Positions 9,301 to 12,899 of a stretch of 19,043 nucleotides of DNA are shown one piece after another. This DNA comes from a virus (lineage: Duplodnaviria; Heunggongvirae; Uroviricota; Caudoviricetes). Made by a program: the position numbers. Positions within the stretch are counted from its first letter, which is position 1. Every line of letters begins with the position of its first letter. Where the stretch lies: IMG/VR virus record IMGVR_UViG_2529292831_000013; one strand, given 5' to 3'.

Positions 9301-12300
9301 GATAGCAGCGGGCTTCAAGGGGCTTTTACCTCATGGTAAAAAGTCACGGATTCAGTGTGATGATGACGAAGGCATTATGATAGACAGTTGTGTGGCTCGG
9401 TTGAGAAGGTATAAACCAGAGGAATATGAGCTCATCATAGCCCACTTTGTTATTGGTATCTCATTACGCACTATTGCCAAAAAGAGAAGGTGTTCAGATG
9501 GCACGATTAGAAAGGAATTACAAACTGCAATTGGTTTTGTAGAGGGTATTACGAGCGTTATTGCATGTAAATAAAAGCTAAAAGCCACCGTAGTGGCTTT
9601 TAGCATTTTAGGATTGTGCAGGTAATGTTTTGTTCAATTTAGTAAAGAAGTTAGATTGGCTTGTTACAGTACGTCGACTCTTTCCAGAAGTACTCAACTG
9701 AAAGAAATCATTGATGCTTTTGGGTTGAGTTCTTTCATAGGCTTGCTTAAGTGACATGTGTTCCCCTTGTCTATTTGTTGCTATGACCGTGAAAAGTAGT
9801 GATGGTTCAGTTCTTTTGCAAAATAGTGCTTACGTTTAACCCAGATAAAACCATCAGCTTTAGAAATGATTGCAACATCTATGGGGCCTCCCACTGTTTC
9901 AGTATCATCGGAGACCTTGCGCTTGAAAGCGGTTAAATTTACTAATGATTCAGCCATATAAGCTAAATCTTGCTTGGGTAAAAACTCGATCATATTTACG
10001 ACTTTGTCAACATAGTTTTCTCGGACAAAGCTATCAATACGCCCCTTGCAATCGGAAACAGTTCTGCGCACTACATCAACTATAGCATCCTTGGCTCCTT
10101 CGATATCTGAAGTGGGCACCAAATCTGTGATTACTGAATCAATACCATCAAGTAAATCGCCGATAGAACGTTGATACTCAGCATGAAGATTTTGGATAAG
10201 ATGTGAACTAGCTCCTTGCATGAAAGCAGAAACTTCATCCTCTTGCGCAAAGGGAGTCACGCCGCAATTAGGAGTGATGCAGCACTTGTCAGCATCTGTG
10301 GTTTTCCTTATTTTATCATTAAAGAAGCCACAAACTTCATATGATAATACTTTAGGGTAATAGTCTTTATCGCCATAACCTGCAATCACAATCCCAGAGA
10401 CGGAACCAATATCACTTTGCTTGCATATCATAGCTGCCAATACATCACTAACTGCTTTTGTCAACTGTGGAGTTATGGATATTGAATCAAAGTCACTAAA
10501 CTTTTGAGCAATGATGCGTTGGGTAATTGATGAAGCATAGGTTTGGGCTGCTTGTTCATCATCCGGAGTAAAACCATCAAAGTAATTAATATCAGATAAT
10601 TTTGTAAGGAGATCGTTGCAATAATTCGTGAGGTCTGTAACAAATTGATTCTTATCGAAGTTAACGAGATATGTTGGTTCGAGACCTTCAGAAAAAGCAT
10701 CAACAAGCATGCTGAATACAATCTCGCTCAGGAAGTGATAAAGATGAGCCTCACGCATACCTGGTGTGATGATTGATTTAGCTGACTGTAGATAATTGAA
10801 GAAATCCTCAGCATATTCCTCCAAAGAGTCAAAACATTTAGAGCCTAAATCCTTTCTATAAGCCTTAATGATAAGCTCCCATGGAGCTGTGCAGAGATCA
10901 CCAGTTCCATATACCATCAAACCTACAGGATGATGTTTAGTGAGAGCGAAAAGCTTTTCAGCGCCATTATAGATTTTATGTTTGCCGCCTCCAGAAATCG
11001 TTACAGCTGAATCTGCGGCTAAAGCTACTGCGGTCTTGTTAAATACGGCTATTTCTGCTGTCATTTTTTACATAGGGTTTATATGTTGTGTAATGAGAAA
11101 AATACAAAAAAATTAACGCGTACGCAAAAATTCTTGTAATCTGTTAAGAGTGGTTACTTCGCCACACAGCTTAAACCCGCCGTCGAGCGGGTTTTTTTGT
11201 ACCTGTAAACTTGGTGCAGTACGGTAAACACGCTGGTGGTAGTGAATACTGACTTTTTATCTTGCTGGCTTTTTAGACAAGAGTTATTGGTATGTCATGT
11301 TAACCAGAAGGGAAAAAGACATGCTAAAACAGCAAGATATGACAGAAACGGCGAAAGTTGTTTTTAATGAATTAAGCATCGAACCGGCAACAGTCGGGGA
11401 GATTGCACAAAACACATACCTTTCACGCGAACGCTGTCAGTTAATACTGACCCAGTTGGTTATGGCGGGGCTGGCAGATTACCAGTTCGGCTGTTACAGA
11501 CGTCTTCAGCAATGAAGGGCTTTTAATTTGTGAAAATGGGCGGCTGGTGGGTGTTGGTAGCACCTGCCAGCCATTCGCTCATGCTTACTGGTCACAAGCG
11601 AACCACGGCCCACTGCTTTAGCGCAAAAGCAGAGTGAGCCTACCAGAGTTACGCTTACTGATCCATGAAAAATACTGTAAAAATAAACAGTGTTGATTTA
11701 ATCAACGCTGATTGCCTGCATTTTATTCAGTCCCTGCCTGATGATTCCATTGACCTGATTGTTACCGATCCGCCTTACTTCAAGGTGAAACCCAACGGTT
11801 GGGACAATCAGTGGAAAGGGGACGAAGATTACCTTAAGTGGCTGGACCACTGTCTGGCCCAGTTCTGGCGGGTGTTGAAACCTGCCGGAAGCCTTTACCT
11901 GTTCTGTGGGCATCGCCTGGCATCTGATATCGAAATCATGATGCGTGAACGCTTTAATGTGCTGAACCACATTATCTGGGCGAAGCCGTCCGGACGCTGG
12001 AACGGATGCAACAAGGAAAGCCTGCGGGCGTATTTCCCGGCAACAGAGCGCATTCTGTTTGCTGAACATTATCAGGGGCCATACCAGCCCAAAAATGACG
12101 GCTATGCGGCAAAGGGGCGCGAGCTTAAACAGTGCGTCATGGCCCCGCTGATTTCTTACTTTCGTGATGCGCGAGAATCTCTGGGAATAACATCAAAACA
12201 GATAGCGGAAGCCACCGGAAAGAAAAACATGGCGTCACACTGGTTTGGTGCCAGTCAGTGGCAGTTGCCGAACGAGGCTGATTACAAAAAACTTCAGGCG

Positions 12301-12899
12301 CTGTTCGCGCGTGTTGCAGCAGAAAAACACCAGCGCGGGGAGCTGGAAAAGCCGCACCACCAGCTGGTCAGCACATACAGTGAACTGAACCGGCAATATG
12401 CCAGCCTGCAGGAGGAGTATAAATCCCTGCGGCGTTATTTTTCCGTATCAGCTGCTGTTCCGTATACGGATGTCTGGACGCACAAGCCTGTGCAGTATTA
12501 TCCAGGCAAACATCCCTGTGAAAAACCGGCAGATATGTTGCGTCAGATAATTACTGCCAGCAGTCGCCCCGGTGATTTGGTCGCTGATTTTTTTATGGGG
12601 TCTGGCTCAACAATAAAAGCAGCACTTTCACTGGGACGTCGCGCAATTGGCGTGGAACTGGAAGAAGAGAGATTTAATCAGACTGTAACTGAAATAAAAA
12701 ATAATCGTTAAATATGCATTTAATAATTTCTTTATTTCATAAAAAATAAAAATATATACGTATATTTACAAATCTTGATATGATTTTCCATTGAAAAGAG
12801 AGCTGGCATTATTAATATCGGTACCCGGTTCCGAAGGGGATGTAAGCGCGGTCATTTTTATTTCTCTTGAGGAACCTGTGCCGACTTAGCTCAGCAGGC

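Follow-up and report, generated by a model that had tools for sequence, protein, structure and literature searches.

A prophage gene whose product can harm the cell that carries it raises the question of when, and through which signals, that product is made. Such a gene is found in IMG/VR virus record IMGVR_UViG_2529292831_000013, a stretch of 19,043 nucleotides (nt) of Caudoviricetes DNA analysed here over its full length and referred to as the window. The gene encodes a DNA methyltransferase, preceded by a small open reading frame (ORF) and, further upstream, by a gene for a 427-residue protein. The original prediction, made from the sequence alone, saw in this arrangement an orphan methyltransferase with a controller-like helix-turn-helix (HTH) protein, and raised the possibility that both form one functional module with the third, HslV-like gene. 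The comparisons described below point to a different organisation. The locus would be the first, promoter-proximal part of a late operon that depends on Q and belongs to a now defective lambdoid prophage of enterotoxigenic Escherichia coli; a late promoter, a terminator, a small winged-helix gene, a structured leader, the methyltransferase gene, tRNA genes and lysis genes follow one another in this order.

Under this explanation the methyltransferase would be made only late in lytic growth, once Q lets the polymerase pass the terminator, and would hypermethylate progeny DNA, which would be protected from many restriction systems in the next host. Its expression would be gated twice because such an enzyme harms the cell. 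The first gate would be transcriptional, at a terminator that is visible in the sequence and presumed to yield to Q. The second would be translational, at a start codon that has no Shine-Dalgarno sequence and lies 5 nt after the last helix of the leader; the structure is supported by covariation, and a regulatory role is proposed from it. The explanation as a whole, with an M.EcoGII-type enzyme of the late operon gated by terminator and leader, the small protein as an accessory and the 427-residue protein as cargo, is considered probable.

The methyltransferase

The methyltransferase matches Pfam family PF01555 (N6_N4_Mtase) at 154.5 bits, against a cut-off of 26.7, over residues 29-340. Motif IV (DPPY) at residue 35 precedes motif I (FxGxG, here FMGSG) at residue 310, which is the beta-class order and bears out the class assigned in the original prediction. 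Relatives in the PDB include M.RsrI, M.MboIIA, CcrM and DpnA. NCBIfam holds no equivalog for the protein, its YhdJ-type model scoring far under its cut-off, and a PADLOC search of the window returns only generic methyltransferase models, with nothing for the small ORF or the 427-residue protein. The gene is also an orphan, as had been predicted: no endonuclease-like gene stands beside it, the neighbours being the 427-residue protein gene, the small ORF, two tRNA genes and the lysis genes.

The closest characterised relative is M.EcoGII of E. coli O104:H4 strain C227-11, with which the methyltransferase shares 288 of 347 residues (83%, with 2 gaps, measured against a sequence machine-read from the PDF supplement of PMC11551740 that is slightly imperfect). 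The alignment spans the catalytic, target-recognition and S-adenosylmethionine (SAM)-binding regions, is free of gaps through the target-recognition region, and contains both motifs intact, without substitution. M.EcoGII and M.EcoGI resemble the window enzyme further in length (348-349 residues), in the order of DPPY motif, target-recognition region and FxGxG motif, and in being prophage-borne and orphan. As a cross-check, the methyltransferase of phage 1720a-02, which has been called 'very similar' to M.EcoGII (PMC5778455), is identical at 291 of 346 positions (84%). This phage serves as a proxy for the M.EcoGII locus of strain C227-11; its methyltransferase gene is likewise preceded by the small ORF (95% identical) and the leader (135 bits). 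The paper on M.EcoGII describes no upstream small ORF, late-operon position or leader RNA (PMC5778455).

M.EcoGII is a truly non-specific adenine methyltransferase that is encoded by a prophage and not expressed in the lysogen; constitutive expression yields slow-growing, unstable clones, and the gene is probably switched on at induction (PMC5778455). Its accepted role is protection against restriction (PMC5778455), so the protective function suggested for the window enzyme was already known for its family. Other members are likewise silent in lysogens (PMC5778455, PMC6602927), and methylome work on Shiga toxin-producing E. coli lists homologues as 'nonspecific', without activity detected in culture. 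The pair of small ORF and methyltransferase gene resembles, at 82-87% DNA identity, the corresponding regions of SfV (orf47/48), phiP27, mEp460, 1720a-02 and many Stx2 phages. The stretch of 1720a-02 that spans small ORF, leader and methyltransferase gene matches 2,331 of 5,426 complete E. coli genomes (43%), in up to nine places per genome. By sequence, the enzyme is another copy of a known kind, and most likely it methylates adenines in almost any sequence context.

That the enzyme is site-specific, having diverged from M.EcoGII in specificity, and exerts an epigenetic effect on the chromosome of the lysogenic host is very improbable. About 17% of the residues differ from M.EcoGII, some of them central, and specificity cannot be read from sequence. 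Against this, the target-recognition region aligns without gaps and at high identity, a strong terminator precedes the gene, and both closer and more distant homologues are reported to be non-specific or silent. The terminator and the silence of the family in lysogens make the epigenetic role that had been entertained for the gene unlikely.

A conserved leader RNA

The ~150 nt between the small ORF and the methyltransferase gene keep their length and sequence across genera, even in loci that have no small ORF. The conserved leader formed no part of the original prediction. The fold modelled for this segment (helices in Table 1) is a three-way junction, in which P1 closes P2 and P3 and the joining nucleotides are invariant, followed by hairpin P4 and then hairpin P6. 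In a MAFFT alignment of 25 sequences (A2), 14 of the 37 pairs carry changes on both sides, compared with 5.8 +/- 1.6 after shuffling. The corresponding count in alignment A4, made from 34 sequences with the covariance model, is 29 of 37, compared with 15.3 +/- 2.1 after shuffling (0/500) and 11-16 in slid controls, and the covariation score is 0.297 versus 0.126. Conserved G-U pairs fit the sense strand only, and the covariance model R1 likewise matches the sense strand only, save for the palindromic P2. In 30 of the 34 sequences every frame contains stops, and the leaders differ in length by numbers of nucleotides that three does not divide. A leader peptide was considered and rejected: the conserved AUG inside P1 opens ORFs of 7-43 codons that vary by sequence, and they share no conserved peptide. 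The alignments point to a structure that is conserved by compensatory change, strand-specific and non-coding.

The leader is tied to the methyltransferase gene throughout its range. R1 gives exactly one strong match per locus, abutting the methyltransferase gene, at 52 loci (89-169 bits). With filters off it also finds PY54, phiKO2, N15, YDC107_1, a VHML-like Vibrio phage, Val-yong3 and Aeromonas phage phiARM81ld (26-58 bits). The homologous late-region methylases of three of these (N15 gene 52, phiKO2 gp52 and PY54 ORF60) are 58-63% identical to the window enzyme, and their leaders score 38-58 bits. A 23-mer of the leader occurs exactly in at least 120 viral contigs, and the methyltransferase gene starts 129-135 nt after it in all 112 that hold enough downstream sequence. 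The leader stays with the methyltransferase gene where the gene upstream has been replaced.

No match to the leader is found among the 4,227 families of Rfam 15, either at the gathering threshold over the whole window or at E<=10 over positions 11080-11720, where only weak chance matches around the terminator appear. Nor do full-text searches of the literature yield a published description of an RNA element, or of a function for the small ORF, upstream of M.EcoGII-type genes. The candidate novelty of this locus is a conserved folded leader, absent from the RNA family catalogue, on a very common phage gene.

Three observations concern the range and annotation of the leader. Loci of Xenorhabdus and Photorhabdus (L049-L075) have a shorter variant, ~90 nt upstream of the methyltransferase gene, which R1 scores at 17-25 bits; P2 is kept and P4 is apparently absent. 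In Vibrio phage vB_VpaM_MAR (L174), gp57, an annotated 52-residue ORF at 696-854, overlaps the leader match at 721-868 and has no family match, and is therefore unlikely to be a real gene. For N15 gene 52, the annotated start (L167, position 1735) lies 234 nt downstream of the start of methyltransferase homology, at an ATG at 1501.

Predicted alternative pairings at the translation start

The methyltransferase start has no recognisable Shine-Dalgarno sequence (GCTTACTGATCCATG); the consensus is GCTTACTGATCyATG. Coupling through an ATGA overlap at the start was considered and rejected, since the overlap is not conserved. A GATC sequence, the Dam site, stands right before the ATG (window 11658-11664) and is kept in Enterobacteriaceae, Proteus and Morganella, and not in Xenorhabdus or Photorhabdus.

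A GUGAGCC further downstream is an alternative partner for the 3' strand of P1 (GCCCA); the resulting helix, P5, also uses the 5' strand of P6. In five sequences, drawn from at least three lineages, the outer pair of P5 is A-U in place of G-C, and a double change in one Mixta sequence (L017) preserves both P1 and P5. Folds forced to hold P1 or P5 differ by 0.9 kcal/mol. Double changes are seen in four of the seven pairs of P6, a moderate proportion. The mutually exclusive pairings resemble a sensor domain coupled to the translation start. By predicted structure the leader is riboswitch-like, sharing with riboswitches and other cis-regulatory leaders a multi-helix junction, invariant joining nucleotides, exclusive pairings that reach the translation start and a 5' location.

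From this structure, the leader probably limits production of the toxic methyltransferase, and the family appears to be generally under post-transcriptional control, with the leader as the constant part and small proteins as variable additions. Candidates for what would set such a switch are the methyltransferase itself, SAM or S-adenosylhomocysteine (SAH), folding kinetics behind a Q-modified polymerase, and a small protein. A stronger version of this proposal makes the leader an RNA switch of a new class, through which translation of a toxic methylase is gated in answer to the enzyme, SAM or SAH, or the state of the polymerase, with the small proteins as interchangeable trans-factors; it is put forward as a tentative possibility.

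A leader that does not act on translation, serving instead as a stabilising 5' structure of the mRNA, an RNase processing site or an aid to read-through of the late transcript, is unlikely. A transcription-linked role is conceivable because the N15-like leader begins ~10 nt after the late terminator, and P6, the helix next to the start codon, has the least support. Against such a role, the distance between the leader and the start codon of the next ORF, be it the methyltransferase gene or a zinc-ribbon ORF, is fixed. The start without a Shine-Dalgarno sequence, the movement of the leader with the methyltransferase gene when the upstream gene is exchanged, and the constant company of that gene in the 112 viral contigs also speak against it.

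Position in the late operon

The proposed transcriptional gate is read from the region between Q and the small ORF. A promoter-like site, a candidate equivalent of pR', has a -35 element TTAACG at 11113-11118 and a -10 element that is either TGTAAT at 11135-11140 (16 nt on) or TAATCT at 11137-11142. It is followed by an intrinsic terminator, the putative equivalent of tR', which in the absence of Q would leave an RNA of ~55 nt. Q is the expected trans-factor for read-through of this terminator. The promoter and the initial transcribed region are common only to loci with the same Q family (the window, L002 and L005, with Q proteins 55-89% identical), and in loci with a DUF1133 protein or a Q of the lambda type the promoter region is unrelated in sequence. 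All five aligned loci share the terminator hairpin, its T run and everything 3' of it, irrespective of Q type. A promoter that depends on the type of Q, followed by a shared terminator, is by sequence the signature of a Q-specific late promoter with its tR'. In N15 and phiKO2, a late promoter, a terminator, the homologous methyltransferase gene and a holin gene are annotated in the same order.

We infer that the small ORF and the methyltransferase gene are the first genes of a Q-dependent late transcript, a position that would explain the published silence of the family in lysogens. A palindrome, AAAAATTAACGCGTACGCAAAAATT (window 11108-11135), overlaps the -35 element and spacer of the promoter-like site; its conservation is confined to phages that share the short Q type, and it is a candidate Q-binding element.

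The junction between terminator and leader differs between phage groups. In N15 (L167, 1355-1385) the leader, which begins with GTGCCTGAAAAAGTGGGCG, comes directly after the terminator, and the small-ORF homologue precedes the late promoter; the other N15-like phages share this arrangement. Lambdoid loci have GTGCCTGAAAA after the terminator and CTGTGAAAATGGGCGG at the start of the leader (window 11195-11215 and 11525-11540). Judged by these repeats, the segment with the small ORF looks like an insertion inside a short repeated sequence.

Several points weigh against the explanation in its present form. Because the prophage is defective, the methyltransferase, or the late operon as a whole, may never be expressed or induced in this strain. 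Visual inspection identified the promoter, which a consensus-rule promoter scan did not list. The non-specificity of the enzyme is deduced from 83% identity to the machine-read M.EcoGII sequence. Alignments made with the covariance model, such as A4, lean towards the modelled structure, and their counts of double changes are somewhat inflated. P6 has the weakest covariation of the helices, its register shifts between Enterobacteriaceae on the one hand and Morganellaceae and N15-like phages on the other, and the unconstrained minimum-energy fold pairs the region before the AUG elsewhere. A leader that merely stabilises or processes the mRNA would look the same.

The small winged-helix protein

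The small HTH-like ORF of the original prediction is a real and conserved gene. It is annotated by RefSeq, matches PHROG 331 (E 5.9e-35) with 318 database relatives, and shows 293 synonymous versus 184 non-synonymous codon changes across 13 orthologues. An ATG further upstream, at 11297, is specific to the window, where a 2-nt indel shifts the frame relative to the orthologues. The predicted fold is a three-helix winged helix (AlphaFold2 predicted local distance difference test (pLDDT) 90.7) and not an Xre-type HTH. Pfam gives only sub-threshold winged-helix matches (DprA_WH, TrmB), and a fold search returns only generic winged helices at E ~2e-3: N-terminal domains of O-methyltransferases, IclR and MarR regulators, and SelB. 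The protein is acidic, with an isoelectric point (pI) of 5.1 here and 4.3-4.7 in three distant orthologues.

Of 80 species-level loci, 61 have the small ORF ahead of the methyltransferase gene (38-95% identity; the range extends from Escherichia to Proteus, Xenorhabdus and Photorhabdus), as do 102 of 109 viral contigs. It is missing or replaced in about 19 of the 80 loci, where the methyltransferase is full length and the leader scores at least 160 bits. In two enterobacterial loci (L011 and L012) a 79-residue Cys-rich ORF takes its place. N15 gp51 is a weak homologue (29% identity, E 4e-4) that adjoins the N15 methyltransferase gene from upstream of the late promoter. The small protein often accompanies the methyltransferase but can be dispensed with; it is an optional accessory rather than an obligatory controller, and may act as an accessory factor. 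A hairpin, CTTCA-GCAA-TGAAG, spans the stop codon of the small ORF (window 11495-11530) and is followed by a U-rich stretch; most relatives have GCCTCC-AGTAAT-GGAGGC in its place. This hairpin could act as a weak attenuator separating the small ORF from the leader.

The C proteins of type II restriction-modification (R-M) systems are the model for the controller arrangement that had been proposed. They are small helix-turn-helix-type proteins encoded just upstream of a modification gene, and they act as Xre-type dimers that bind C-boxes and time the endonuclease. A C-protein-like transcription factor that times or limits transcription of the methyltransferase gene would fit the position of the small ORF, on the same strand and directly upstream in most loci, its MarR- and IclR-like fold neighbours and the adjacency of gp51 to the N15 gene. 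This reading is nevertheless quite improbable. The protein is an acidic winged helix, is often absent and has no endonuclease to delay. A promoter scan lists no promoter-like site between small ORF and methyltransferase gene, and a search for C-boxes or operators finds only the leader helices, the terminator and the palindrome over the promoter. The gene is absent or replaced in about 19 of 80 loci with leader and methyltransferase intact, and its N15 homologue belongs to another transcription unit.

The com-mom system of phage Mu offers a second model. In Mu, the harmful mom gene is translated with the help of Com, which acts through an RNA hairpin, and Com homologues precede other non-specific adenine methyltransferases, such as Hin1523, Hia5 and Nma1821 (PMC3299994; PMC6483171). 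Both systems would combine a harmful, broadly protective adenine-modifying enzyme made late, a small upstream ORF and an RNA hairpin by the start codon. They differ in that Com is a basic zinc finger and the window protein an acidic winged helix, and in that Mu has a single hairpin where the window has a ~135-nt leader of several helices. The com-linked methyltransferases are alpha class (PMC5778455), unlike the beta-class enzyme of the window, and neither Pfam nor AlphaFold2 finds the Com zinc finger (PF10122) in the small protein of the window.

The small protein could by this model bind the leader RNA or the methyltransferase and activate or restrain its production or activity. Differing small proteins do occur upstream of homologous methyltransferases (winged helix, Com zinc ribbon, 38-residue zinc ribbon and 79-residue Cys-rich protein). 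Between leader and methyltransferase gene, Aeromonas phage phiARM81ld has a Com-family zinc-ribbon ORF (PF10122, E 1.6e-6), which overlaps the methyltransferase start, and Vibrio phage Val-yong3 has the 38-residue zinc-ribbon ORF. Winged helices can bind RNA, the mRNA-binding domain of SelB being among the fold matches, and an acidic partner could bind the basic methyltransferase (pI 8.8). A Com-like role is rather doubtful all the same: the protein is dispensable in many loci with intact leader and methyltransferase, its net negative charge speaks against nucleic-acid binding, and the fold matches are generic.

The proteasome-like neighbour

The HslV-like gene runs on the opposite strand, 256 nt ahead of the small ORF; it has a terminator of its own and precedes the late promoter. 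Its 427-residue product has no match in Pfam, NCBIfam or PADLOC and belongs to PHROG 5990, whose function is not known. The AlphaFold2 model (pLDDT 83.6, with large helical insertions) matches 20S proteasome beta subunits in Foldseek at E 4e-4 to 1e-3, with template modelling (TM) scores of 0.53-0.58 (target-normalised), and Thr2 is invariant among 40 homologues. The label 'HslV-like' is a fair description of the predicted fold. More than 6,300 relatives of ~430 residues are on record, all uncharacterised.

The proposal that the three genes form one module, for example a toxin-like hydrolase that needs methylation, draws only on adjacency in the window and its identical clones, together with a homologue (45% identity) in the same slot of a Mangrovibacter locus (L034). 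Synteny refutes it and leaves it hardly any credence. The slot between Q and the late promoter is variable: it holds the 427-residue protein gene in the window, two unrelated minus-strand genes in L002 and a MazF toxin gene in L003, and it is empty in L004 and L005. The Mangrovibacter locus is the only one of the 80 species-level methyltransferase loci with a homologue, and in the viral sets the gene occurs only in clones of the same prophage. The family (loci L295-L298 and L299-L302) is also present in the Q slot of a Klebsiella prophage that lacks any methyltransferase gene, and in a Vibrio island its neighbours are an integrase gene and type I R-M genes. By these sequence comparisons the gene is separate cargo placed between Q and the late promoter, outside the methyltransferase module. 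Its recurrence in the Q slot and the Vibrio neighbours suggest a defence or cargo role for the family. A false lead is removed in this way, and the proteasome-like protein is worth study on its own.

The prophage and its other features

Nine complete E. coli genomes, mostly from human enterotoxigenic isolates, carry a chromosomal region 100% identical to the window. Pfam and the RefSeq annotation of one identical genome show the window to be the right arm of a lambdoid prophage. The order runs from hokD/sok, DUF968, RusA and a short Q antiterminator (PF06530) through the 427-residue protein gene (minus strand) and the 64-residue ORF to the gene annotated 'DNA-methyltransferase', and on to tRNA-Thr, tRNA-Gly, two holins, a GH108 endolysin, iss/bor, nohD and the large terminase. 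The tRNA pair is also kept 3' of the methyltransferase gene in related E. coli prophages, and the lysis genes mark the late operon. An IS66-family element (ISCro1; window 18750-19043 and beyond, 18771-21386 in L001) splits the large terminase gene, and the window has no early region. The prophage is defective because the terminase is interrupted and the early region is absent. Coordinates are collected in Table 1.

Table 1. Features in and around the methyltransferase locus, numbered from the first nucleotide of the window
Feature	Position	Strand	Basis or remark
Antiterminator Q, short type	9221..9574	+	Pfam PF06530, E 1.3e-43; RefSeq 'antiterminator Q family protein'
Proteasome-beta-like protein (predicted N-terminal nucleophile (Ntn) hydrolase fold), 427 aa	9781..11064	-	AlphaFold2, Foldseek, synteny
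Late-promoter-like site (putative pR' equivalent)	11113..11142	+	Read by eye from sequence
Intrinsic terminator (putative tR' equivalent), AAACCCGC-N6-GCGGGTTT then T run	11173..11200	+	Terminator scan; perfect 8-bp inverted repeat
Small acidic winged-helix protein, 64 aa	11321..11515	+	RefSeq, PHROG 331, orthologues, AlphaFold2
Structured non-coding methyltransferase leader, ~135 nt	11529..11664	+	Covariance model R1, alignments A2-A4
Leader helix P1	11537-11541 with 11608-11612		
Leader helix P2	11542-11553 with 11561-11572		
Leader helix P3	11574-11579 with 11597-11602		
Leader helix P4	11613-11619 with 11626-11632		
Alternative leader helix P5	11606-11612 with 11634-11640		Excludes P1 and P6
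Leader helix P6	11633-11639 with 11653-11659		Ends 5 nt before methyltransferase AUG
M.EcoGII-family beta-class N6-adenine DNA methyltransferase, 348 aa	11665..12711	+	Pfam, PDB relatives, alignments
tRNA-Thr(UGU) and tRNA-Gly(UCC)	12880..13033	+	ARAGORN, Rfam
Lysis genes: two holin-family proteins and GH108 endolysin	13781..14988	+	PF16931, PF05449, PF05838, PF09374; RefSeq

Other elements of the prophage lie apart from the late operon. A hok/sok type I toxin-antitoxin locus (window 7030-7354; Rfam sok, 110 bits; hokD annotated) stands just upstream of the DUF968-RusA-Q block. Positions 4154-6185, on the minus strand, form a block of low GC content (31-33%, compared with ~46% for the window) with one operon for a ParA-family protein and two hypothetical proteins; PADLOC gives only a faint PDC-M28B match, and the block looks like separately acquired cargo. 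An IS100 is found at the left edge.

Significance

The methyltransferase itself adds little, being a further representative of an enzyme family that is known and in commercial use. What the locus offers is an explanation of how that family is wired, with its gene in the first gene set of a probably Q-dependent late transcript. Every member examined carries a conserved, switch-like leader that is listed in no catalogue. If the leader controls translation, it would be the second example, after com-mom of Mu, of post-transcriptional gating of a dangerous anti-restriction enzyme. If true, the prophages of E. coli, Stx phages included, would harbor a widespread new regulatory RNA that is easily tested.

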